Source: Trueperaceae bacterium
GTDB taxonomy: Bacteria > Deinococcota > Deinococci > Deinococcales > Trueperaceae
NCBI GenBank assembly: GCA_965215565.1
Contig: CBDCDZ010000004.1
Location: forward strand, 2,784,001 to 2,848,000
Length of the DNA stretch: 64,000 nt
Reading direction: 5' to 3'
Shown: positions 15,509 through 29,633 of the stretch, in pieces
Layout: each line of letters opens with the position of its first letter
Numbering within the stretch: position 1 is the stretch's first letter
Program-made: the position numbers and the translations under genes
Notes under the pieces: generated by a model
What the model saw: the letters and a program-made list of their open reading frames with translations, nothing else
Told to the model about the DNA's origin: nothing
Databases searched by the model: none

Positions 15509-17140
15509 ATGTCTCATTCAACCTATCACCGCTGGTGGCAGACCGGCATCATCTACCAAATCTACCCGCGCTCCTTTCAAGACAGCAATGACGACGGCGT
15601 CGGCGACTTGAAGGGCATTCAGAAGAGGTTGGACTACCTTCAGTCTTTGGGCGTCGACGCCATCTGGCTCTCGCCCATCTATCCTTCGCCCATGTACGAT
15701 TTTGGCTACGATGTGGCGGACTACGTGGGCATCCACCCGCTTTTCGGCACGATGGAGGACTTCGACGCGCTCTTGGGCGAGGTGCATGAGCGCGGGCTCA
15801 AGCTGATCTTAGACCTGGTTCCGAACCACACCTCGACCGAACACGCTTGGTTTCAGGAGTCGCGGCAAAGTCGGGATAACGCTCGGTCCGACTGGTACAT
15901 CTGGCGCGACGCGGCTCCCGGCGGCGGACCCCCTAACAACTGGTTATCTTGCTTCGGCGGGCCCGCTTGGACCTTCGATGAGGCGAGAGGACAGTACTAC
16001 CTCCACAGCTTCGAAACCAGGCAGCCCGACCTCAACTACCACAACCCCGAGGTGGAGAGCGCCCTCTTCGAGACGATGCAGTTCTGGCTCGGTAAGGGTG
16101 TGGACGGCTTTCGGGTGGACGTCATCGAGTTCATGCTGCAAGACCCGCATCTGCGCGATGAGCCCGAAAACAAGATATGGGACGGCGTCGAGCCTTACGG
16201 TAAGCTCAACCACATCTATTCGCGCAACCAACCCGAAGTGCACACGCTCATCAAAAAAATGCGGCGCGTGGTGGACAGCTATAGCGCGCCGGGGCGGGAG
16301 CGCGTGCTGATCGGCGAGATGTTCATCTTCGACGAGACGCTGATGGCGTACTACGGTCTTGCCGACGAATGTCACCTCCCCTTCAACTTCAACTTCATCT
16401 ATAACGACTGGAGCGCGCCCACTGCGCGCCGCATTGTAGAGCGCTACGAGGCGTATCTGCCGCCCGGCGCGTGGCCCAACTACGTGCTGGGCAACCACGA
16501 TCAGCACCGCGTGGCGACGCGAATCGGGTGCGAGCAGGCGAGGGTGGCGCAAACTCTGCTGCTCACGCTGCACGGCACGCCCTTCGTCTACTACGGCGAA
16601 GAGATCGGGATGCACGACGTGGACATCCCCGCTGACAAGGTCAAAGACCCGCCCGCCGTAAATCAGCCCGAAGTGGCGCACCTCTTGGGGCGCGACCCCG
16701 AGCGCACGCCGATGCAGTGGGACGCTTCGCCGAACGCGGGCTTTACGGGCGAAGAGGTGGAGCCGTGGCTGCCGCTCGCGGATGACTTTGTGGAGAACAA
16801 CGTTCAAGCGCAGGCGGATGATGACACGTCGATGCTCTCGCTTTTTAAGAAGTTGACCCAACTTCGAAAGCGTGAACCTGCCCTTAGCATCGGCAGTTAC
16901 GAAGAGGTCGCAGTAGGTGAAGCGGACGGTGACGTGTTTGCCTACCTGCGCTCTGCAAAGGATGCCGATAGCTTTTTAGTGGTGCTGAATCTGAGCGGCA
17001 ACGCGCATACGCTCGAGCTACCCCACTTTCCCCCAAAAGCTGAGATTGCCGTCTCGAGCCACATGACCCGCGCCAAAGAGATTAATTTAAGCAACTTAGA
17101 GCTTGCCGCCCATGAAGGGTTGGTTGTGCGCCTGCGGTAG
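15509..17140 (+). CDS. GH13 alpha-glucosidase / oligo-1,6-glucosidase
   Basis: YQIYPRSF, DLVPNH, QPDLN, DGFRVD, LIGE, NHD, GRDPERTPMQW. Confidence 0.93.
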   Translation: MSHSTYHRWWQTGIIYQIYPRSFQDSNDDGVGDLKGIQKRLDYLQSLGVDAIWLSPIYPSPMYDFGYDVADYVGIHPLFGTMEDFDALLGEVHERGLKLILDLVPNHTSTEHAWFQESRQSRDNARSDWYIWRDAAPGGGPPNNWLSCFGGPAWTFDEARGQYYLHSFETRQPDLNYHNPEVESALFETMQFWLGKGVDGFRVDVIEFMLQDPHLRDEPENKIWDGVEPYGKLNHIYSRNQPEVHTLIKKMRRVVDSYSAPGRERVLIGEMFIFDETLMAYYGLADECHLPFNFNFIYNDWSAPTARRIVERYEAYLPPGAWPNYVLGNHDQHRVATRIGCEQARVAQTLLLTLHGTPFVYYGEEIGMHDVDIPADKVKDPPAVNQPEVAHLLGRDPERTPMQWDASPNAGFTGEEVEPWLPLADDFVENNVQAQADDDTSMLSLFKKLTQLRKREPALSIGSYEEVAVGEADGDVFAYLRSAKDADSFLVVLNLSGNAHTLELPHFPPKAEIAVSSHMTRAKEINLSNLELAAHEGLVVRLR

Positions 17141-17146
17141 ACGTAA

Positions 17147-17182
17147 AAAGGACTCGAGGATTGACTCGAGCCCTTCTCTTTT
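17147..17182. terminator. Hairpin between convergent genes built from two CTCGAG sites
   Basis: AAGGACTCGAG-GATTGA-CTCGAGCCCTT with flanking A/T tracts. Confidence 0.55.
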
Positions 17183-17195
17183 AGCGGTAAGAGAT

Positions 17196-18863
17196 TTAAG
17201 ACGGACCCGCGATGCGCCAGAAGGTATTGGGGTTATCAATATCTGCGCTGACACTGCCCTTACCGTGGAAGTAGTCGTCGTAGTTAGCGTATCTGCTGTT
17301 CGAAACTGGACCCATCACTGCCCATATAACGGAGCTTGGTTGCACCTCTGTTGCAGTTGCCACCCACGCTTGGCGTACCTTCTGGGGCTTTTTGTCTGGG
17401 AACCAACTTATTTTCTTGCCCAACATCTTTTCAGCCAACAGACGCCCTTCGGTTTGATTGTCGAAGCTAACGTTAGCGTAGGCGAGCATCTGGTGGAGTC
17501 CCTTGAACGCGGGCCCCCAACGTTGCGCGAAATTCTTGCCGCCGGAGGTGTGTTGGAGGGGTCCGCAAGCTGCCACGACGAGCCACTCTAAGTCGCGGTT
17601 GCCCCATTTTGCGTCGTTGTAGTGCAAGAAGCCGTCGTCGTTAGTGCCTTCAAAGGTAAAGCCGTCGCCGTCTGCGTGACCCGTGTAGAAGACCATGTCC
17701 ACATCGTCTACATAGGCGTTGTCGGCACCTCCCTTACTTGGGTCTTTGAAATCGCGTTCCCAAGCGGCAGCGTCGCCAAAGTGAAACTGGACCGGGATGC
17801 CCGCGCCGCTCATCGTGTCGCGGAAGCCGCCTGCGTTGTTCTGGGAGCCGCCGAGTCCTTGCGATACGCCGATATATTCGACGCCAACATCCACACGTCC
17901 TAAGCGCTGGGTGCTGAGTGTTGGCGCTTGGCTGACCTCTCTACTATCGGCTGATTGTGCCGCTAACTCAGACTCGCCACGCGTCTCGCCTGTGCTGGCG
18001 TCGAGCATGACCGCCCTAAGTTGCGCGCCGTTTTTGAGCGTATAGTCTTCGCAGACGTAAGAGGGGGTGAGTTCTTCGCCGCTTTGGTCGGGTGAATCCA
18101 CATAGTAGGTGAGTTTCGGTGTACCTGGCAGCACGCCTTCGTTACTTGCATACGCCTCTTCACAAGCTTGCGCCGCTTCACTTGCGGACAAAACAGAGGT
18201 TTCACCGATGGGCTCGAGCCCATAAAGTCCGTAGTAAAGCTGCGTGACCTGACCTTCGGGGTTAAAAACCGCTTTGACCTTGCCGCCGGGTCCGCTCAGC
18301 GAAACGCCGCCTGCTTGCTCCAACCTCAGGTTAAAAAGCACATGCGTATCTACTTCGGTGTCAACGAGCGTTTTGCCTCCGGTGGTCTCTAAACTGAAGG
18401 TGCTTACGTCTGTATAAGGTTCTGCGTTTAAGCCCTCAACGATGGATTCGGGCAGCATCTCCGCGCTGTCTAACGCGCCGAGCACACGCTCCACTGCTTC
18501 GCCTGCATCAAAGGGTTTCACCTCTTGTAGCGCCTCAAAGTCAAACGCTTCAGTGACTACGCTGCCGCCATCTTCTGCGGACTCTTCCTGACCAACAACC
18601 TTGCTCGGCACCGCCATAAAGTTCTCTGTGTCAAGGTAGCTGATTGGCGCAAAGGGATCGGGTTCACCAATGTCTGCTTTGATGCCGAGTTCGTTCATAA
18701 GATGCTGAACTTGCTCGCTCTTGACGCCGTTCTCAGTGAGGCGAAAGACGGGGAGTTGCTCTAAGTCTTGCGTCGAGACTTCGCTCGGGGTTTGATTCAT
18801 GTCGGTGCAAGCCGCTAAGAGCAGGAAAGAGGTTGAGATTAAGCCGATATGTTTGCATTTCAT
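17196..18863 (-). CDS. Lipoprotein with C-terminal DUF6345-like domain (putative His-Cys peptidase fold)
   Basis: Start MKCKHIG with AAGGAG SD; lipobox LAAC; AWERDFKD, VDMVFYTGHA, WLVVAAC motifs. Confidence 0.7.
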   Translation of the reverse strand: MKCKHIGLISTSFLLLAACTDMNQTPSEVSTQDLEQLPVFRLTENGVKSEQVQHLMNELGIKADIGEPDPFAPISYLDTENFMAVPSKVVGQEESAEDGGSVVTEAFDFEALQEVKPFDAGEAVERVLGALDSAEMLPESIVEGLNAEPYTDVSTFSLETTGGKTLVDTEVDTHVLFNLRLEQAGGVSLSGPGGKVKAVFNPEGQVTQLYYGLYGLEPIGETSVLSASEAAQACEEAYASNEGVLPGTPKLTYYVDSPDQSGEELTPSYVCEDYTLKNGAQLRAVMLDASTGETRGESELAAQSADSREVSQAPTLSTQRLGRVDVGVEYIGVSQGLGGSQNNAGGFRDTMSGAGIPVQFHFGDAAAWERDFKDPSKGGADNAYVDDVDMVFYTGHADGDGFTFEGTNDDGFLHYNDAKWGNRDLEWLVVAACGPLQHTSGGKNFAQRWGPAFKGLHQMLAYANVSFDNQTEGRLLAEKMLGKKISWFPDKKPQKVRQAWVATATEVQPSSVIWAVMGPVSNSRYANYDDYFHGKGSVSADIDNPNTFWRIAGPS

Positions 18864-18968
18864 GGTCGTTCTCCTTGAATATTTGCGAGAGTTTTGGACG
18901 GGTGCCCACCTCGAGGCGTAGTAGAGGTGACGCAGTGGGCACATTCGGATATAAAGAGATTTTAGAGA

Positions 18969-19982
18969 TTAGTTGACAGGGATGGGAGTGGGACGAGCGT
19001 CAACGGGAACGGGGGTGGGTCTCGCCCTAAAGAAGACGGGCTGAGGGTCTTCGCTAAGGGTGCCGTGCTTTAACGCACCCTCGATATGCTCATTCATCAC
19101 TTCGTCTAAGAGGTCAGCGTGGACGGGTAAGACGCCAGCGTGCTCGAAGAGGGAAACCTGTACCTCTTCGCTAAAGAGAGATTCGGCGAGCATGGTGCCC
19201 ATCTCTTCACCAACTTTGGTATGAACGGCAACGTTAAGCCCTTGGATAACCGGCGCAACGCCTTCGCCTTGAAGCTGGGTGAGGTTGCCGAGACCCGCTT
19301 CTACTCTGTTGAGACCTGCGTTACCAGTGAAGATAACATCGACTTCGTGGAGATGCTGGATGGCTATATAGCGGTCAATATTCTCTTTTGCTCGCTGTAA
19401 GTGATAGCCCATGCAAGACCTGGAAGCAAAGCAGATAGGACTAACTGAAATGGTTGTTCCTTGACATCCTGCGGGATCACACGTCACTGAGCCTATTCGA
19501 ATGCTCGTATCGACTTCAAAAACTTCCGTAAATACATTGCCCAACTCCTGCTGACTCAACTCGCTCACTTCCTGTAGTGCTAAGTCGTAGCTCATAAGTG
19601 TTTCCGCAAACTCAGGTGTGATGTACGCGCCTTCAAAGTCCCAACCGACGACAGGGGAGAAGTCAACGGGGTCACACCAGCGCGGGTCGCACCAAGGGAT
19701 GGGCCAAGGGCGCGGGTTCCAGGGCCAAGGGTCAATCTCCGGGGGTAGCGGCGTGTAGGAAACTAAACCACCTCCCACTTCGTTATGAACTTCCAAGAGA
19801 TTATCCGGCTCGGTCAGGATAGTCTCGAAGCCCGCTGCACCTAGTCCTTCGGCAATCTGCTCGTTATCCGTGACGATGGGAACGTCTGAAAAACCGGCGG
19901 TGCTGAGTTCCGTCTCTGTGAGGTCGGTGCCGCACGCGCTCAAGAGGGCGATGAGACAGCCAATAAAAATGGTGCGTTTCAT
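18969..19982 (-). CDS. Uncharacterised lipoprotein with Pro/Trp/Cys-rich segment
   Basis: AAGGAG SD, lipobox LSAC, DPWPWNPRPWPIPWCDPRWCDP, C-terminal ARPTP(V/I)PV twice. Confidence 0.75.
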   Translation of the reverse strand: MKRTIFIGCLIALLSACGTDLTETELSTAGFSDVPIVTDNEQIAEGLGAAGFETILTEPDNLLEVHNEVGGGLVSYTPLPPEIDPWPWNPRPWPIPWCDPRWCDPVDFSPVVGWDFEGAYITPEFAETLMSYDLALQEVSELSQQELGNVFTEVFEVDTSIRIGSVTCDPAGCQGTTISVSPICFASRSCMGYHLQRAKENIDRYIAIQHLHEVDVIFTGNAGLNRVEAGLGNLTQLQGEGVAPVIQGLNVAVHTKVGEEMGTMLAESLFSEEVQVSLFEHAGVLPVHADLLDEVMNEHIEGALKHGTLSEDPQPVFFRARPTPVPVDARPTPIPVN

Positions 19983-20135
19983 GGGGTTGCTCCTTTGTCA
20001 AAGCTGAGTGTGTTTCGGGTGTAGGGCTGACGGGTCTGTTTAGTAGGCGTACGCTGGGCTGTTCACCTCACCCCTCCTCTCTTTCGTCCTGGTCGTTTGC
20101 TTGATTAGAACGATGAAAGGATGGTAGGCTGAGCG

Positions 20136-20152
20136 CGTCAACTTTTCGTCAA
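20136..20152 (-). promoter_or_regulatory. 11-bp-period direct repeat upstream of lipoprotein operon
   Basis: Minus strand TTGACG-AAAAG-TTGACG upstream of a TACCAT -10-like hexamer; SARP/BTAD-type spacing. Confidence 0.4.
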
Positions 20153-20337
20153 AAAACTCGAGAAAGCGTGTCCTAAACAAATAAAAACACCATGAATTTG
20201 TTTTCTTGCCTCTACGTCGGCGTACCCTTTCGAACGTTTGAGGACGGTTTGGGGGGTTCGTTGGGTCGCTTGCCCCTTCCTAAAGCCGCGCCTCACCTCT
20301 TCCGGTCAGGCTCTGGTCATGGCTGGTCAGGCACACT

Positions 20338-22947
20338 ATGGACGTGCTTAATCTCACTCTTTTAGGAACGCCGCGCCTGACCTACAAAGGCGCAGACGTA
20401 GGGCTACAAAAAAAGAACTTGGCGCTCGTGTGTTATTTGGCGCTGCAAGGAACGTGTACCCGCGCGGACCTCACCGAACTGCTTTGGGGTGCGGGGCGCG
20501 GCGGCAGTTTGCGCACGGCGCTCTACAAGGTGCGGCAGTTGCCGGGCGCAGAAGACTGGCTCACGGACGGGGAACTCGTCAAGCTAGCCGTGCAGAGCGA
20601 TGTGGCAATGTTGCAGCGCGACAAGGACGCCCCCAATCTCTCCGAAGCGACGTTTGCCCACCTGGATAGTTACTTAGAAAATGACGCGCAAGGGCTTTTG
20701 TTCGGTTTCAAAGCGCCGACGCCCGCCTACAGCGAATGGTTAGAAGAGCAGCGCCAAGCGGTTGCGCTCTTGCTCGAGACCCTCCTCAGACGCGCTGCCC
20801 AAGAGGTATTTGAACGCGGCGAACTGGAGCGGGCAAAGCGCTACGCCGAAGCCCTCATCACCCGCGACCCCTTAGACGAGCCTGCGTATAGGCTGCTGAT
20901 GCGGCTCGAGTTGGGGCGCGGCTATCCCGAAAACACACACCGCACTTTTGGGCGTTTAGTCTCAACACTCGAAGAGGTCGGCGGCGAACCCGACCCGGAT
21001 ACACTCGCGCTGCACCGTCAACTGTTGGGCACGGGGAGCGGCGCACAGGGCGCACGCCTGCACGAAGGAGACGACGTGCCAGGGCGTGCCCCGCGGCTTA
21101 TCGGGCGCGACTCTCTGTTACAAAGTCTCGAGGCAAACCTCACCGGACACCGCTCTGAGCGCCCGGTGTTGCTGCACGGTTTAGGCGGCGTCGGTAAAAC
21201 GGCCTTAGCCGCGGAGTTGGCGTTCAGGTTCCTCCCCAAAGATGAAGTGCTCTGGCTCCAAGCCGGTCTCAGCAGCGCCGCCGAACTCCTCGGCGCAACT
21301 CGTGGGCTATTGGGACTCTCAGGCGCGGCGCAACCCAGTGCGCTAACCCAAGCACTCGGGCGCGTTTCCCTCGTCATTGTTGACGACGTTTGGAACGAGG
21401 GCGCGGTGGCAGCGTTGCGTCACCATCTACCCGAGACTTGTCCGCTGGTCGTAACCTCGAGGCAGCGCATGAGCGGCTTTAAGCGACTCGACGTGAGGCG
21501 GCTCGTGAGAGAGGATGCGCGGCAACTTTTGCGGCTCGAGGCGGGCACTGACCTCTGTAACGCGCAGCTAGAGCCCATCTGTGACCTCTTGGGCGACCAT
21601 CCCTTCGCCCTGCGTGTGGCAGGTGCGAAGCTCAAGCACGACGGGCTCACGCCGCTGCAACTCCTCACGCAGCTCGCCAGCGCGCCCCACACGCTCAGAG
21701 TCCAGGGAAGCAGGGGCGACGCGAACAGCGTCAGCGCCCTCTTGCAAACGAGCTTAGATACCCTCAGTGACGATGCCTATGACGCCTTTTTAGCGGTGGG
21801 CGCACTCGCGTCTAGCACGGTGAGTGCGCCGCTCCTAGCCCGCGCCTTACGCCGCGACGAAGAGGTTGCCGAAGCCGCGCTTATCGAACTGCAAACCCGC
21901 GCCTTAGCCACCCGCACTGCTAGCCCCGGCAGTGACCTCGTGCGCTACACGCTCCACGACCTCTCACACAGCTTTGCGCGGCAAAAAACCACCTTACGCC
22001 CGCAGAGCGTTCTTCGTGCCTGTAGCGATTTGGTACACGCGCATCCTAAAGACTTCGACATTTTAGACGCTGAAATCACCAACGTCATCGGGGCGCTCAG
22101 CCCCTTGCAAGACGCGCAAGAGGTGAAAGGGCAACGTTCGGTGCTTTCGGTCATGGCGAAACTCGTCATCGGTGACGCCTACTTTGCAGCGAGAGGTCAC
22201 ACGCCGCGTTCCTTGAAGCTTTTGGAGGTGGCAGCGAAGTGGGCGGAGGCGCTTGAAGAACTCGTGTGGGCGCATCATTTTGTGACGAAGCTCGGGGACG
22301 CTTACCGCGTGCAATATCACCAGTTTGAAAGGGCGCTCACCTCTTATCAAACGGGGGCGAAGTTGGCGCAGCTAACTGGGGATAAGGCGAGAGAGGCCAT
22401 ATTGACGAGTCTCTGCGGTATTGCTCAGCATCATTTGGCGCGTTCACCTAATGAGACATTTGAGCGAGCCTATCAACTTGCTCGAGAGGCAGATAACCTT
22501 ACGGCTATTGGTCAAGTGCTACAGCATCGCGGTTTTGTTGCTGGGTTCTACGATAACTGGAAGCTAGTGGAAAGCTTGAACATAGAAGCGGGCAGAGTTG
22601 CACGCTCGTTCTCAAATACAACGGATGAAGAACGCACCCGTGCTGACGACCTTCTTTACTTTTCACTTCTCAACTTGGGCGAAGCCAAACGTAAGCTTGG
22701 AAATTTTGAAGAAGCTGTAACCATCCGAAAAGAGGCTTTGGACATTGCAGTTACGCACAAGAATCAAATGTGGCAAGCCTACGCATTGCACGAACTTGGT
22801 GAGATGTACCTCGAGGTGCCTGAGTACGAGACAGCCGAGGGGTACTTGCGAAAGGCTCTCAAGCTTTACAAAACTAATCACGCCGCCGCCGAAGTTACAG
22901 AGGTGCAACAGCTTATTGACAAAAATTCACGCCGAGTTGACGCCTAG
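20338..22947 (+). CDS. BTAD-NB-ARC(STAND)-TPR transcriptional regulator
   Basis: LTLLGTPRL wHTH start, DPLDEPAYRLLMRL (BTAD), Walker A GLGGVGKT, Walker B LVIVDDVW, VVTSR, GDHPFAL, LHDL, C-terminal TPR-like repeats. Confidence 0.88.
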   Translation: MDVLNLTLLGTPRLTYKGADVGLQKKNLALVCYLALQGTCTRADLTELLWGAGRGGSLRTALYKVRQLPGAEDWLTDGELVKLAVQSDVAMLQRDKDAPNLSEATFAHLDSYLENDAQGLLFGFKAPTPAYSEWLEEQRQAVALLLETLLRRAAQEVFERGELERAKRYAEALITRDPLDEPAYRLLMRLELGRGYPENTHRTFGRLVSTLEEVGGEPDPDTLALHRQLLGTGSGAQGARLHEGDDVPGRAPRLIGRDSLLQSLEANLTGHRSERPVLLHGLGGVGKTALAAELAFRFLPKDEVLWLQAGLSSAAELLGATRGLLGLSGAAQPSALTQALGRVSLVIVDDVWNEGAVAALRHHLPETCPLVVTSRQRMSGFKRLDVRRLVREDARQLLRLEAGTDLCNAQLEPICDLLGDHPFALRVAGAKLKHDGLTPLQLLTQLASAPHTLRVQGSRGDANSVSALLQTSLDTLSDDAYDAFLAVGALASSTVSAPLLARALRRDEEVAEAALIELQTRALATRTASPGSDLVRYTLHDLSHSFARQKTTLRPQSVLRACSDLVHAHPKDFDILDAEITNVIGALSPLQDAQEVKGQRSVLSVMAKLVIGDAYFAARGHTPRSLKLLEVAAKWAEALEELVWAHHFVTKLGDAYRVQYHQFERALTSYQTGAKLAQLTGDKAREAILTSLCGIAQHHLARSPNETFERAYQLAREADNLTAIGQVLQHRGFVAGFYDNWKLVESLNIEAGRVARSFSNTTDEERTRADDLLYFSLLNLGEAKRKLGNFEEAVTIRKEALDIAVTHKNQMWQAYALHELGEMYLEVPEYETAEGYLRKALKLYKTNHAAAEVTEVQQLIDKNSRRVDA

Positions 22948-22976
22948 CTCGTATTGTTACTTGTGGAGGAAAACAG

Positions 22977-24377
22977 ATGAAATACATTGCAAGCAGCCTT
23001 CTTTTGACCCTCTTTTTAAGTGCATGTTCGATTAGCGATCCTTCCAACCTCGAGCAGCAGGCTTTCGAAACTATCGACCCAAGCAATCTCATCGGTTTAA
23101 GCGGCGAAGAATTCAGACTCATAAACGAAGATACGGGCAACTGTTCGATTGATGAGATCAAAATACCGGGAGAAGGATTGCGCGCTATGGGTGGTAGTGG
23201 CGGTCTCTTCACCCAACCCTTCTCTATCAGCACCGTACCCGATGACATCAACATCATCAGCCAAGAGGTTCTCAACTTAGCGTCACCCCACTTCGACCAG
23301 CCCACCGCGCTTCTTGTTGTAGATGACTTTGATGGGCAAGGGCTTAATCAACCTGGCGTTTACTTTCCCGATATTAGAGGTCAAGGTCCCCACGGGTCAC
23401 TTGTTTACAACCATACTTTGGCACTTCTCGCAAAAATCGACCAAAGCATGGGAAAAAATCCAAAGTTGAAGCTAAGCCCGGCTGTAAAGATGGACAGCTT
23501 TGAGATACACAAGCCTGCGCGTATCGATCTATTTAATGAGCCTCCTTTCAACTTCGAGCCGTTCTCAGGGCATGTTACGCAGTTTCCCAACCTCAACCTT
23601 ACCGTTATTGCTATTGATACCGAAGATTTCGATACGAGCATCATCGCCGGCCGCATCGCCGCGACGATTCAACGTGCGGCGGACCATTGGAATATCTCGC
23701 GCTTCGCTGCCAATATGAGCTTTGGACTGGTGCCGTGCAGCGTACTCGAGGATTTCACGGCAGTGAAGCAAATGTATCCAACGTTTGAATCTTACCGAGA
23801 TGCGCTTCTCGCTAAGAATAAGCTCAGCGTGACTCAGTTTCATAAAGAACTCACAGAAATCCTCACGACACCTGTAGGTAACGACCCGCTGCAACTCCTC
23901 GCGCAGTTCAATCCAGAAGCGATCTCTGGAAATGTTGACGCCGTGGCATACCTCGCCTCAGCGGGCAACTACGGTATGAACTACTCGCTCTTTCCCGCCC
24001 ACTGGCCCGAATTTGCGAGCGTGAGCGCCTCAGACCTGAGCGTGGACCCAAGCAGACCGCTCGAGATTTCGCATAAAGACGCCGCGTATTCAAATTCGGG
24101 TGAAATCCTCTTGCCGGGTGGCTACTACCAGCTTAACCTCTACTACCCTGGTGGCGGCTGGCAGCCCATCCCTGACATTGCTTTCGCAGGCACCTCATTC
24201 GCTGCACCTGTTTTGAGCGTCTTCACCGCGTTGGACTTTACGAGCAGAGCGCCGCAGTGCCCCGTTACACACGAGCACAGCACGTCGCTCGCACACAACT
24301 ATAGGTACGGTTTAGGACAAGATGAGATGTTGGAGAACGTCATCAACGGGTCGTGCGCTCGTCACTATCGTCCCTGA
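22977..24377 (+). CDS. Subtilisin-like (S8) serine peptidase lipoprotein
   Basis: GGAGG SD, lipobox LSAC, VVDD (Asp), PHG (His), ASAGN (oxyanion Asn), AGTSFAAP (Ser). Confidence 0.8.
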   Translation: MKYIASSLLLTLFLSACSISDPSNLEQQAFETIDPSNLIGLSGEEFRLINEDTGNCSIDEIKIPGEGLRAMGGSGGLFTQPFSISTVPDDINIISQEVLNLASPHFDQPTALLVVDDFDGQGLNQPGVYFPDIRGQGPHGSLVYNHTLALLAKIDQSMGKNPKLKLSPAVKMDSFEIHKPARIDLFNEPPFNFEPFSGHVTQFPNLNLTVIAIDTEDFDTSIIAGRIAATIQRAADHWNISRFAANMSFGLVPCSVLEDFTAVKQMYPTFESYRDALLAKNKLSVTQFHKELTEILTTPVGNDPLQLLAQFNPEAISGNVDAVAYLASAGNYGMNYSLFPAHWPEFASVSASDLSVDPSRPLEISHKDAAYSNSGEILLPGGYYQLNLYYPGGGWQPIPDIAFAGTSFAAPVLSVFTALDFTSRAPQCPVTHEHSTSLAHNYRYGLGQDEMLENVINGSCARHYRP

Positions 24378-24487
24378 GAGGTGAAGCGGGTCAGCATAAG
24401 ATTTGTTCCGATAGACTGACCTGCTCATTCACTTTCTCGTACGTTCTTCTACAATTGAAAGCAATATCAATGCGGAAGGAGGAAACC

Positions 24488-24586
24488 ATGAAGCAGAAAC
24501 TTCGTCACATCTTTGTGCTGGCGCTCATCACCTTACCGTTCTGGAGTAGCGTAGCATTTGCTGGATTGCGCGTTAGGGGCGGCTAA
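24488..24586 (+). CDS. 32-aa secreted propeptide MKQKLRHIFVLALITLPFWSSVAFAGLRVRGG
   Basis: AAGGAGG SD 5 nt before ATG, classical signal peptide ending A-F-A, own terminator. Confidence 0.72.
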   Translation: MKQKLRHIFVLALITLPFWSSVAFAGLRVRGG

Positions 24587-24610
24587 TCTCCAAAACTTTC
24601 TATGCCTACG

Positions 24611-24647
24611 AAGAGAGGTGAAGCTTTCACCTCTCTTTTTCTTTTTT
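24611..24647 (+). terminator. Intrinsic terminator after small peptide gene
   Basis: AAGAGAGGTGAA-GCT-TTCACCTCTCTT plus T-tract. Confidence 0.8.
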
Positions 24648-24727
24648 GTGTTGAGCAAACTGTTTTTATACACCAAACAACCTAGCCTCACGGGACAGCT
24701 TCTGCGGGTAAATTGGGGAAGCAGCGG

Positions 24728-26659
<1,932 letters not shown>

Positions 26660-26837
26660 GTTTAGCCCTCCAGTACGGTTTCAGTTTACCGTGAGGTGCG
26701 CAGAGGTAGAGGAAGAGGGCGAGAGAAAAAAGACAAACGTGGTGGGTTGCGGCGTCGCGAGAGGTCATACCGTTTCCGGATTCCAGGATTTTCCCCAAGG
26801 CGAGATGAAAAAGCGTGGATTAGATCGGCGTATGAAG

Positions 26838-26863
26838 AAAAAAGCACCGCCGTAACGGTGCTT
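26838..26863 (-). terminator. Intrinsic terminator for the beta-barrel gene
   Basis: Minus strand AAGCACCG-N6-CGGTGCTTTTTT. Confidence 0.7.
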
Positions 26864-26884
26864 AGCGTGGGTTTAACTTAACCT

Positions 26885-26995
26885 TGGCAGTTCCAAAACA
26901 TATTGAGACGGATAAGCGTAGATATCATCTCAGAACGTGCGTGCTACATGGTGTTCTCAACAGTGAGAGTGTTTCTAACCAGATGATACCTGCTA
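26885..26995 (+). mobile_element. MITE-like dispersed repeat, copy B
   Basis: GGCAGTTCCAAAACATATTGAGAC...CGTGCGTGCT...ACAGTGAGAGTG...AACCAGATGATACCTGCTA. Confidence 0.7.
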
Positions 26996-27001
26996 CCTCA
27001 A

Positions 27002-27478
27002 TCAGAAGTGCAGGTTCACCCCAGCCCGCGCCCGCACGTAGGGGTCAAAGCCACTCACGAGCAGCCCCGGCTGCACCTCGCCGAACACGCCTAAGCGCCC
27101 GATGCGAAGCTCGCCGCCGCCCACCGCGTGAGCGCCGAAAGGACCGTTGCGCACGTCCGCAAGCTCGTCGGGCTGCTCCTGGAAAAAAACGTCCGCGCCC
27201 GCGCCTAAGTAAACTTTGACACCTGTCAGCGGCACGCCGATGTTATAGAGCAGGTCAGCGCTCGCGACTCTGAAGCGTGAAAAGCCCAGGTTCGTCTCCG
27301 CCGCGCCGCGTACGGTGAAACCTGGTAGCAGCCCGATACCCACTTGCGCGCCCACCCCCAAAGTTGTGTCGTCGGTATTCGTGGGCGGCGCTCCGGTGAG
27401 CCCGACGTAAAGTTCTTGCGCCAGGGCGGATGAGCCTAGAAGCGCGGCGCACATCACTGCAAATATGAATTTTTTCAT
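27002..27478 (-). CDS. Small outer-membrane beta-barrel protein
   Basis: GAGGAGG SD, signal peptide, amphipathic beta strands, terminal Phe (AGVNLHF). Confidence 0.75.
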   Translation of the reverse strand: MKKFIFAVMCAALLGSSALAQELYVGLTGAPPTNTDDTTLGVGAQVGIGLLPGFTVRGAAETNLGFSRFRVASADLLYNIGVPLTGVKVYLGAGADVFFQEQPDELADVRNGPFGAHAVGGGELRIGRLGVFGEVQPGLLVSGFDPYVRARAGVNLHF

Positions 27479-27779
27479 TGACAACCTCCTCGAGTTGTAG
27501 AGAACATAGCCTGAGCCTAATCGTACCTCATGAGTGAACGCTGTGCCTGACGCAGTTTTGCTTCATTAAAGAGATGAAGAAAAAGGCTCATGATTATGTG
27601 GAGTGGGTTTGGCTAGCCCACTAGCGACTCCGTGAACGTATCCGCTCGGACCGAATACAAAATAAAGTTTCGTCATTCAACCGGACATGGAACCACCCGG
27701 AAGCGGTATGAGTCTTTTGCCGACTCTAAAAAATTGCTCACTACCGCTAGATGCTGGGCTAGGGCGTAGACTGTGAGGT

Positions 27780-29633
27780 ATGGCTCAGGCAACGCAACCG
27801 TCCACGAAGCGAACCGATCAGCGGGAGAAGACGCCATCCTCCGGGCGCTCCACGGACTTGTCTCAACTCAGGCGGCTTTTTACCTACACGCGCCCTTACC
27901 GAACCCCGCTTGTTACCGGCATCCTCGCCGTCATCGTGGCGAGCGTGCTGGGCTTCGCCTTCCCGCTCATGGCGAGAGAGCTGTTCGACACGGCGTTCTC
28001 GGGCGAAGGAGGGGCGGGTCTCGGGCTCAACACGATCACCCTAGTCTTGGTGGGCATCTTCGTCGTGCAAGCCCTGTTTAACTACCTTCGCGTCTACTTC
28101 TTAGCGCTCGTCGGGGAGGGCGTCGTCGCGGACCTGCGCCGCGCCTTGTACAGTCACCTCATCGGGCTCTCGGTGCGCTTTTTCGAGGAGCGCAAAACGG
28201 GCGAGATCACCTCGCGCCTCACCTCGGACATCGCCACCGTGCAGGGCGTCGTCTCGCAGGCGTTGGCGCAGTTCGTCAATCAGCTCATCACCCTAGTCGG
28301 CGGCGTCGCCATCCTCTTCTACCTGGACGTAAAACTCACGCTCGTAATGCTCTCCGTCGTACCCGCCGTCGTCTTAGCAGGTGCGTACTTCGGGCGCAAG
28401 CTCAGGCGCATCAGCACCGAGTTTCAAGACCGCGTGGCGAGCGCGAACGCCTCGGCGGAAGAAGCCATTACGGGCATCCGCGTGGTCAAGTCGTTCACGG
28501 CCGAGGGCTTGGAGCGCGAGCGCTACGGCAGCCTCATCCGCGATTCTTACGCCGTTGCACTGCGCCGCGCACGTGTCAGGGCGGTCTTCATCCCGAGCAT
28601 CATCTTCGCTACCTTTAGCGCCATCGCCGTGGTGTTTTGGTACGGCGGACGCTTGGTCCTAAACAGCCAACTGCCCGCGGGCGACCTCATCGCCTTCTTG
28701 CTGCTGACGCTCTTCGTCGCGGGCTCGATTGCCACCTTTCCGGCGCTCTACAGCCAGTTTCAGGAGGCTTTGGGCGCGTCGAAGCGAATTTTCGACCTCT
28801 TGGACGAAGCGAGCGACTTGCCGGAGCCGGCTAAGCCCCGGACCCTAGAGACCGTCCAGGGGCACCTCGCCTTCGAAGGGGTCTCCTTTCGCTACGGGGA
28901 CGCCGAGGATACCTCAAAGGGTAGAGGTAGCGCGCTCGTCTTGAAAAACCTCTCGCTCAGCGCGAACCCTGGCGAGATAGTCGCACTTGTAGGGCCGAGC
29001 GGCGCGGGCAAGAGCACGCTCGTCACGCTCATCCCGAGGTTCTACGACCCGAGTCAGGGCCGCGTGACGTTAGACGGTGTGGACCTGCGCGAGCTGGACA
29101 CGCACGCCCTGAGAGCGCACATCGGCATCGTGCCGCAGGAGACGCAGCTCTTTTCGGGCACGGTGGCGCAGAACATCCGCTACGGCAAACCAGAGGCGTC
29201 GGACGAGGAGCTGAGGGGCGCGGCGAAAGCTGCCAATGCCCACGACTTCATCGAAGAATTCCCGGACGGGTACGAGACCATCGTGGGCGAGCGCGGCGTC
29301 AAGCTCTCGGGCGGGCAGCGCCAGCGCGTCGCCATCGCCCGCGCGCTGCTCAAAAACCCCAAAATCCTCATTTTGGACGAAGCCACCTCGAGCCTCGACT
29401 CCGAGTCCGAAGCCCTCGTTCAAGCGGCTTTAGACACGCTCATGCGGGGGCGCACCGTCTTCGTCATCGCGCACCGCTTATCCACCATCAGAAACGCAGA
29501 CCGCATCCTCGTTTTAGAACGAGGTCAGATCGTACAGAGCGGCACGCACGGCGCGCTCATGGCGCAAGGCGGGCTCTACCGCGACCTCTACGAGACGCAG
29601 TTCCGGGACGAGGACGAGGTGGCGACTGCCTGA
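27780..29633 (+). CDS. ABC exporter, fused permease/ATPase (MsbA-like)
   Basis: 6 TM, GPSGAGKS, LSGGQRQR, ILDEATS, IAHRL. Confidence 0.93.
   Translation: MAQATQPSTKRTDQREKTPSSGRSTDLSQLRRLFTYTRPYRTPLVTGILAVIVASVLGFAFPLMARELFDTAFSGEGGAGLGLNTITLVLVGIFVVQALFNYLRVYFLALVGEGVVADLRRALYSHLIGLSVRFFEERKTGEITSRLTSDIATVQGVVSQALAQFVNQLITLVGGVAILFYLDVKLTLVMLSVVPAVVLAGAYFGRKLRRISTEFQDRVASANASAEEAITGIRVVKSFTAEGLERERYGSLIRDSYAVALRRARVRAVFIPSIIFATFSAIAVVFWYGGRLVLNSQLPAGDLIAFLLLTLFVAGSIATFPALYSQFQEALGASKRIFDLLDEASDLPEPAKPRTLETVQGHLAFEGVSFRYGDAEDTSKGRGSALVLKNLSLSANPGEIVALVGPSGAGKSTLVTLIPRFYDPSQGRVTLDGVDLRELDTHALRAHIGIVPQETQLFSGTVAQNIRYGKPEASDEELRGAAKAANAHDFIEEFPDGYETIVGERGVKLSGGQRQRVAIARALLKNPKILILDEATSSLDSESEALVQAALDTLMRGRTVFVIAHRLSTIRNADRILVLERGQIVQSGTHGALMAQGGLYRDLYETQFRDEDEVATA

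Follow-up and report, generated by a model that had tools for sequence, protein, structure and literature searches.

An accessory AfsR-like regulon in Trueperaceae with a candidate heptapeptide ligand encoded twice

The DNA analyzed here, referred to as the window, is a 64,000-nucleotide stretch from a Trueperaceae bacterium of the Deinococcota (contig CBDCDZ010000004.1, positions 2,784,001 to 2,848,000), and the locus in question spans positions 17196 to 24647 of it. The locus encodes an AfsR-like STAND regulator with tetratricopeptide repeats (TPRs), an S8 subtilase lipoprotein, a 32-codon open reading frame (ORF) and two divergently transcribed lipoproteins, which confirmed the five-gene layout described in an earlier note on this DNA. 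Judged from sequence, the locus appears to be a genuine AfsR-like regulon of accessory nature that encodes a specific candidate peptide ligand in two places, and most likely a new variant of peptide signalling. We favor a reading as autoinduction, with a probability of roughly 0.55, in which a seven-residue unit, cut from the protease or secreted separately, would be imported and would activate the regulator that drives the protease gene. The features of the locus are as follows.

17196–18863, minus strand: LP1, a 555-aa lipoprotein with a C-terminal DUF6345 domain (PF19872, E=1e-74); second gene of the divergent operon
18969–19982, minus strand: LP2, a 337-aa lipoprotein; first gene of the divergent operon
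20121–20152, minus strand: predicted SARP-type box and -10 element for LP2-LP1; 7-mer direct repeats with an 11-bp period, 8 bp before TACCAT
20304–20329, plus strand: three GGTCA direct repeats spaced 11 and 10 bp, immediately 5' of the regulator start
20338–22947, plus strand: AfsR-like regulator, 869 aa; SARP (winged helix-turn-helix and BTAD), NB-ARC STAND and C-terminal TPRs
22926–22957, plus strand: predicted SARP-type box and -10 element for the S8 gene, overlapping the last codons of the regulator
22977–24377, plus strand: S8 subtilase lipoprotein, 466 aa; lipobox C17; D116, H139, N331, S407
23175–23195, plus strand: embedded seven-residue unit, S8 residues 67–73; low-confidence loop at the modelled pro/mature junction
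24428–24455, plus strand: possible sigma-70-like promoter of the peptide gene; 9/12 match, such counts being at chance level; no SARP box
24476–24482, plus strand: Shine-Dalgarno (SD) sequence of the peptide gene, AAGGAGG
24488–24586, plus strand: 32-aa propeptide gene (P0001); predicted Sec signal peptide 1–25, then one unit 26–32 (codons 24563–24583)
24610–24647, plus strand: intrinsic terminator, a 13-pair hairpin and T-run that closes the S8 and peptide genes

The two copies of the unit, residues 26–32 of P0001 and residues 67–73 of the S8 protein, are identical at 5/7 residues and 17/21 nucleotides. On a matrix of the other S8 units the P0001 tail scores 15.3 bits, compared with 5.3 bits for the runner-up among 41 small signal-peptide-like ORFs of the genome, and the window peptide equals the family consensus of the unit. 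The proposal that the tiny ORF consists of a signal peptide followed by seven residues agrees with rule-based features, namely a basic N terminus, a hydrophobic core and an A-x-A motif at 23–25. Its strong SD was also recovered, but the terminator said to be its own is so only in part, as the hairpin is also the first terminator after the regulator and S8 genes and therefore not the peptide gene's alone. Sigma-70 and terminator scans of the window gave overall counts at chance level, and Rfam returned no match within positions 16500–28000.

The protease matches the Pfam S8 family weakly (E=0.0085, below cut-off). Its residues D116, H139, N331 and S407 are invariant in S8 alignments of 16 and 36 sequences, all four catalytic motifs are kept by 116/137 S8 relatives, and its model (pLDDT 85) adopts a subtilase fold (Z 17.3, root-mean-square deviation 5.6, 261 residues aligned), so that the triad and oxyanion Asn are present, as in the earlier description of a lipoprotein with all catalytic motifs. 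Residues 67–73 form an exact seven-residue indel in the S8 family alignment, and the unit often occurs in tandem, with 2–4 copies in 38 of the 60 S8 genes parsed in the loci described below. A further set of 137 S8 proteins, 96 parsed and 41 unparsed, showed 2–5 copies in 52/96, the copies being at least 5/7 identical in 49 of these 52, and Gly at unit position 1 in 84/96 and at position 6 in 89/96; the overall range is 1–5 copies. The register of the S8 repeat is that of the predicted mature peptide of the small gene.

The position of the unit within the zymogen was considered on the S8 model, where residues 62–74 are one of two segments with pLDDT below 50. Unprocessed pro-subtilisins align from model residue 52–53 (their own residues 62 and 69) and mature subtilisins from residue 87–90, which puts the junction near 53–90, a range set by the ends of the alignments that does not fix the cut site. 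One of these pro-subtilisins has a propeptide of 77 residues according to its structure entry title, and we take that of the other to be 69 residues. Together with the alignment starts, these lengths would place the unit between the mature core and the segment corresponding to the end of the propeptide, which it directly follows.

Description of the regulator as AfsR-like was supported by a profile of 45 regulator sequences, whose best match in the PDB is AfsR (E=8e-57, positions 5–559). BTAD (E=4e-8) and TPR_12 (E=4e-10) are above the Pfam cut-off, with AAA_16/NB-ARC slightly below it, and the protein has the layout of large AfsR-like SARPs, consisting of ODB and BTAD, an NB-ARC NOD and C-terminal TPRs. 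Walker A (residues 281–288), Walker B (D349) and an H540-D541 motif are present, and G281, G284, G286, D349, R375 and H540, which include Walker A and B residues and the His of the HD latch, are invariant across the 45 sequences. Conserved Arg, Asn and Trp residues, among them R685, N779, N809 and W812, are retained in the TPR region (residues 560–869 approximately), as would be expected of a peptide groove. The start codon of the regulator lacks an SD sequence, and the GGTCA repeats before it resemble those in L035, a locus of the same genus (L-numbers denote individual loci read).

In all, 84 loci containing 86 S8 genes were read with 6–8 kb flanks, 72 of these genes having at least 1.5 kb upstream. 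The S8 gene lies directly behind an AfsR-like SARP-STAND-TPR gene in 53/86 cases, and S8 profile matches occur in 69/128 family genomes in addition to some Chloroflexota records. A secreted micro-propeptide next to the regulator, the pairing originally proposed, does recur beside regulator homologs (4–5/84 loci), but the constant partner is the S8 protease and not the small ORF.

The predicted promoter box of the S8 gene consists of 7-bp direct repeats with an 11-bp period located 8 bp before a -10-like hexamer, and with the same 8-bp spacing it recurs in six close homologs (L034, L035, L036, L140, L142 and L148). These repeats and spacing agree with the promoter rule for AfsR-like SARPs, 11-bp direct repeats 8 bp before the -10 element (accessible part of PMC10936776). 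A strict form of the pattern, shaped partly on these sites, has three matches in the 4.49-Mb genome of the window (G000), preceding S8, LP2 and the LP2 paralog beside a paralog of the regulator, and ten altered-spacing controls gave none. By an independent box rule, boxes were found before 18/36 S8 genes by close regulators compared with 1/46 other S8 genes and 11/404 other ORFs, most of the latter having lipoprotein-like N termini. Boxes before S8 genes by close regulators suggest that the regulator likely activates the unit-bearing protease, and the box upstream of LP2-LP1 lends support to the idea that the divergent lipoprotein genes are targets. Transcripts that continue as far as the shared terminator would also cover the peptide gene, itself lacking a box. 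The apparent conserved RRVDA C terminus was rejected as a protein motif, being the DNA box translated in frame. In L200, seven SARP-type boxes were seen within 13 kb around one regulator, before most of the adjacent lipoprotein genes.

The 84 loci contain 23 signal-peptide-like ORFs, of which five reach at least 12 bits on the unit matrix, against 7.1 for the next best; all five sit 20–125 bp from a regulator or S8 gene. Four of them, in 4/84 loci, end in the unit and occupy four different positions:

Window: propeptide behind S8, with one unit
L036: propeptide between regulator and S8 on the opposite strand, with two units, one directly following the signal peptide and one C-terminal
L200: propeptide between regulator and S8 on the same strand, with two units placed as in L036
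L142: propeptide before the regulator, with two units placed as in L036

The fifth, in L218, has a unit following the signal peptide, but a longer tail. Of the 24 permutations of peptide and S8 across the four loci, the cognate pairing scores best, and the S8 from the peptide's own locus ranks in the top 1–4 of 60. The four propeptide genes have strong SD sequences, and a hairpin with a T-run follows three of them. The small gene is best explained as a supplementary source of the unit, or a variant of it, that is not always present, with the S8-embedded unit as the probable standard source. L207 (7964–10459) contains three near-identical genes for 52–57 aa lipoproteins downstream of an S8 of this family; the small lipoprotein ORFs of this locus were rejected as units with scores of 5.6–7.1 bits.

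The module is an accessory cassette, gained or lost whole. In a same-genus relative (G002) the flanks of the module, which end at window position 17133 and resume at 24758, lie 68 bp apart, and they are likewise joined in a contig of sequencing run X3. Run X1 yielded a contig identical over 23279–24797; it is possibly from the source sample, so not independent.

A similar arrangement was found in a second, distant S8 subfamily (hhalign 40%). In the genome of the window, a classical subtilase with four junction repeats is flanked by a TPR+HD gene on one side and, on the other, by a propeptide whose end is a copy of that repeat. In 21 loci of this subfamily, which were picked from search hits and not at random, a TPR-protein match lies close by for 22/22 S8 genes, junction repeats are present in 21, and in 3/21 loci the tails of propeptides match the repeats at 8/8, 7/8 and 8/8 positions. 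Repeat and propeptide tail change together between G000 and another genome, G001. The classical S8 gene (L243:5299–6900; G000 C4:1214298–1215900) is frameshifted near its 5' end in the assembly at hand, with its propeptide gene intact and the G001 ortholog also intact. Extending the reading to a peptide language of the Deinococcota, with subtilase zymogens as pheromone precursors, junction units read by cytoplasmic TPR sensors with differing outputs (SARP-STAND and HD-GYP), and separate propeptide genes that evolved more than once as additional or competing sources, is a tentative step to which we give slightly less than even odds.

Further small genes for 38–45 aa signal peptides, with strong SD sequences and terminators, adjoin genes that fuse an unknown N-terminal domain to an HD-GYP-type domain:

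L244 (G000 C4:982404)
L245 (G000 C4:1236684)
L246 (G000 C4:1578082)
L247 (G000 C4:3312936 and C4:3313205)
L248 (G000 C4:3831278)
L308–L327

A signal-peptide gene lies within 1.5 kb of 11/20 HD-GYP-type genes from five genomes compared with 15/150 random windows, and such small genes are possibly another peptide-receptor class. Upstream of the peptide genes at G000 C4:982404 and C4:1216112, GGCAACC direct repeats with 22- and 11-bp periods precede a -10-like hexamer and constitute a second SARP-type box.

For the locus in the window we infer the following course. The unit would be released outside the cell, by a signal-peptidase cut of the small precursor and by trimming of the S8 protein during maturation, and re-imported via an oligopeptide ABC transporter; the genome encodes six SBP_bac_5 genes for peptide-ABC binding proteins. 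Once imported, the unit may bind the TPR sensor of the AfsR-like STAND regulator and trigger an ADP/ATP switch of the kind described for AfsR (accessible parts of PMC10936776 and bioRxiv 10.64898/2026.09.02.748808). Acting at the SARP boxes, the regulator would then turn on transcription of the protease gene and of the divergent lipoprotein genes, and induction of the protease would close a positive-feedback, quorum-like loop. The protease was previously assigned the task of maturing or degrading the signal; it appears to be not just such an enzyme, since it carries the unit at the junction, often in tandem, and has a SARP box.

Several observations weigh against autoinduction. About 20 S8 genes have no regulator nearby, and behind the regulator paralog in L001 there is neither an S8 nor a peptide gene. 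The stand-alone gene is rare (4–5/84 loci, most carrying none), and no small ORF occurs behind the S8 or nearby in the closest homologs (G001, G005 and G009), an absence initially counted against the reading of the earlier note. A tail-before-stop pattern, which also admitted a Trp codon, matched 57 places in 48/128 genomes, the level of a reversed-pattern control, and of 50/57 places inspected only that in the window is a signal-peptide ORF. The strict pattern finds no SARP box before the peptide gene itself. Within this subfamily the peptide matches the local S8 unit at 4–5/7 positions and is never identical to it, and three foreign S8 units fit the window peptide better than its own S8 unit does. 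Nothing indicates a cut on both sides of a single-copy unit. In favor of autoinduction, unit similarity across 35 regulator-S8 pairs correlates more with that of the TPRs (Spearman 0.27, partial r 0.35) than with that of NB-ARC (0.13) or SARP (0.10), but the relation is weak and suggestive only, as kinship is uncorrected, one outlier contributes and the TPR end is physically linked to the S8 start. Per-column enrichment of regulator-unit covariation is not significant (p=0.24) and is partly outlier-driven.

A rival reading is an action of the unit on the protease itself, in autoprocessing, folding or docking, with the secreted peptide as a substrate mimic that tunes the S8 and the regulator sensing something else and merely controlling the S8 gene. 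Such an action would be in keeping with the location of the unit at the modelled pro/mature junction, with a peptide gene that always adjoins an S8, and with the existence of repeat-bearing S8 genes lacking a nearby regulator. We nevertheless regard it as unlikely, because the alignment to propeptide ends begins at 52–53, upstream of the unit, and the unit is modelled at low confidence, a copy number free to vary from 1 to 5 is more easily reconciled with peptides that are released than with a lone ligand of the cleft, a cytoplasmic TPR neighbor of differing output type is retained in both S8 subfamilies, and unit similarity tracks the TPRs, albeit weakly.

The mismatch between peptide and S8 unit at 2–3/7 positions in all four loci, and a peptide gene that lacks a SARP box and may have its own promoter, could alternatively point to a two-peptide switch, in which the S8 unit as inducer and the stand-alone peptide as inhibitor oppose each other on one TPR, like cCF10 and iCF10 on PrgX (accessible part of PMC7117660). 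The identical or nearly identical tails of the distant subfamily argue against opposed roles, as does a window peptide that equals the consensus: related-strain contigs have Arg at S8 codon 71, the residue of the window peptide at that position, which fits drift of the S8 copy, and we consider such a switch quite improbable. Finally, the nucleotide identity of the two units suggests duplication, and a search with the 32-aa protein in 127 other genomes gave, apart from the query itself, a best E of 0.05 and none below, in line with a small ORF without function, left over from partial duplication of the S8 gene, or else with an unrelated short membrane peptide, for instance a type I toxin. Three other genomes, however, carry independent genes built in the same way, with strong SD sequences and two units each, the Sec-type signal is unlike the S8 lipoprotein signal, P0001 has no Pfam, NCBIfam or Rfam match, and the enrichment of similar propeptide genes by HD-domain genes also speaks against this explanation, which we hold to be very unlikely.

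The remaining genes of the locus and its surroundings may be described briefly. The Atlas cluster of LP1 is DUF6345 at 0.94, and an LP1 homolog adjoins the regulator in L036. LP2 has no family match in Pfam, NCBIfam or Atlas; one of its homologs is divergent from the regulator paralog and another lies in L034. That regulator paralog, 51% identical (L001:5592–9647; G000 C4:1629600–1633650), has on its divergent side the LP2 paralog and a classical S8 gene, along with its own box variant. Elsewhere in the same genome, a 59-aa signal-peptide ORF (L003:4817–4996) is convergent with another NB-ARC-TPR gene. An intergenic element of approximately 110 bp at window 26887–26996, present in dozens of copies in G001 and G002, is likely a dispersed repeat or miniature inverted-repeat transposable element.

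Should such signalling be real, an AfsR/NLR-type bacterial transcription factor would for the first time have a peptide ligand made by the cell itself, cytoplasmic peptide signalling would extend beyond Firmicutes, and protease zymogens would count among pheromone precursors as a new kind. Study or engineering of NLR-like switches could then draw on dozens of natural receptor-peptide pairs. A literature search, with supplements outside its scope, returned no description of this system, and the accessible part of a Deinococcus review (PMC6300522) makes no mention of one.

Compared with known systems, the locus resembles RRNPP(A) signalling, the group of Rap-Phr, NprR-NprX, PlcR-PapR, PrgX, Rgg/ComR and AimR-AimP, in its small, putatively exported propeptide (32 aa, within the 10–100 aa range, with a Sec signal assigned by rule), its predicted seven-residue product and a cytoplasmic protein with TPRs, TPR_12 being above cut-off. 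RRNPP(A) precursors also repeat their mature units (accessible part of PMC9765709), and the subtilases Epr, Vpr and AprE make CSF (accessible part of PMC8767453). It differs in its 869-aa SARP-STAND-TPR receptor, as validated RRNPP receptors have 285–473 aa and the accepted range is 250–500 aa, and in the distance from P0001 to the regulator of 1,541 bp in the window, outside the -60 to 400 bp range within which L036, L142 and L200 fall (accessible part of PMC10075063 for both). The unit is here mainly encoded within a protease, and the host belongs to the Deinococcota, whereas RRNPPA matches are reported in Firmicutes in the accessible part of PMC9765709. The analogy to RRNPP drawn earlier thus stands as a likeness of design and not as membership: on receptor length and adjacency the locus is not an RRNPP member, yet it would work like one. 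The cCF10/iCF10-PrgX system of Enterococcus pCF10 similarly combines one heptapeptide from a lipoprotein and one from a small gene with Opp uptake and a single receptor, but cCF10 is derived from the lipoprotein signal peptide via Eep (accessible part of PMC7117660), while the present unit lies behind the lipobox at the zymogen junction. GmSubPep of soybean is likewise a signal peptide hidden in a secreted subtilase; this plant peptide lies in the PA domain in a single copy, its receptor is unknown, and no stand-alone copy or feedback promoter is described in the accessible part of PMC6770897. The FxSxx-COOH system also places an NB-ARC-TPR protein by a short peptide gene; the regulator matches its TPR family (NF040586) weakly, at 93 bits against a cut-off of 300, and the HaaT RiPP TPR family at 29 bits against 1125. 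It differs by its SARP output domain, and with no maturase among the ORFs a cluster for a ribosomally synthesized and post-translationally modified peptide (RiPP) was rejected. The closest regulator is AfsR of Streptomyces, with afsS as a nearby small gene, which shares the SARP-NOD-TPR layout, the HD latch and 11-bp repeats 8 bp before the -10 element, as far as the accessible parts of its sources go. The natural activating signal of AfsR is not identified there, the accessible part of bioRxiv 10.64898/2026.09.02.748808 containing neither "ligand" nor "peptide". Here, by contrast, regulation is predicted to reach secreted lipoproteins, and the locus itself encodes a candidate secreted ligand; it thereby names, for the natural signal of AfsR-type STAND regulators, a candidate seven-residue ligand, its source, a predicted DNA box and a proposed feedback loop.

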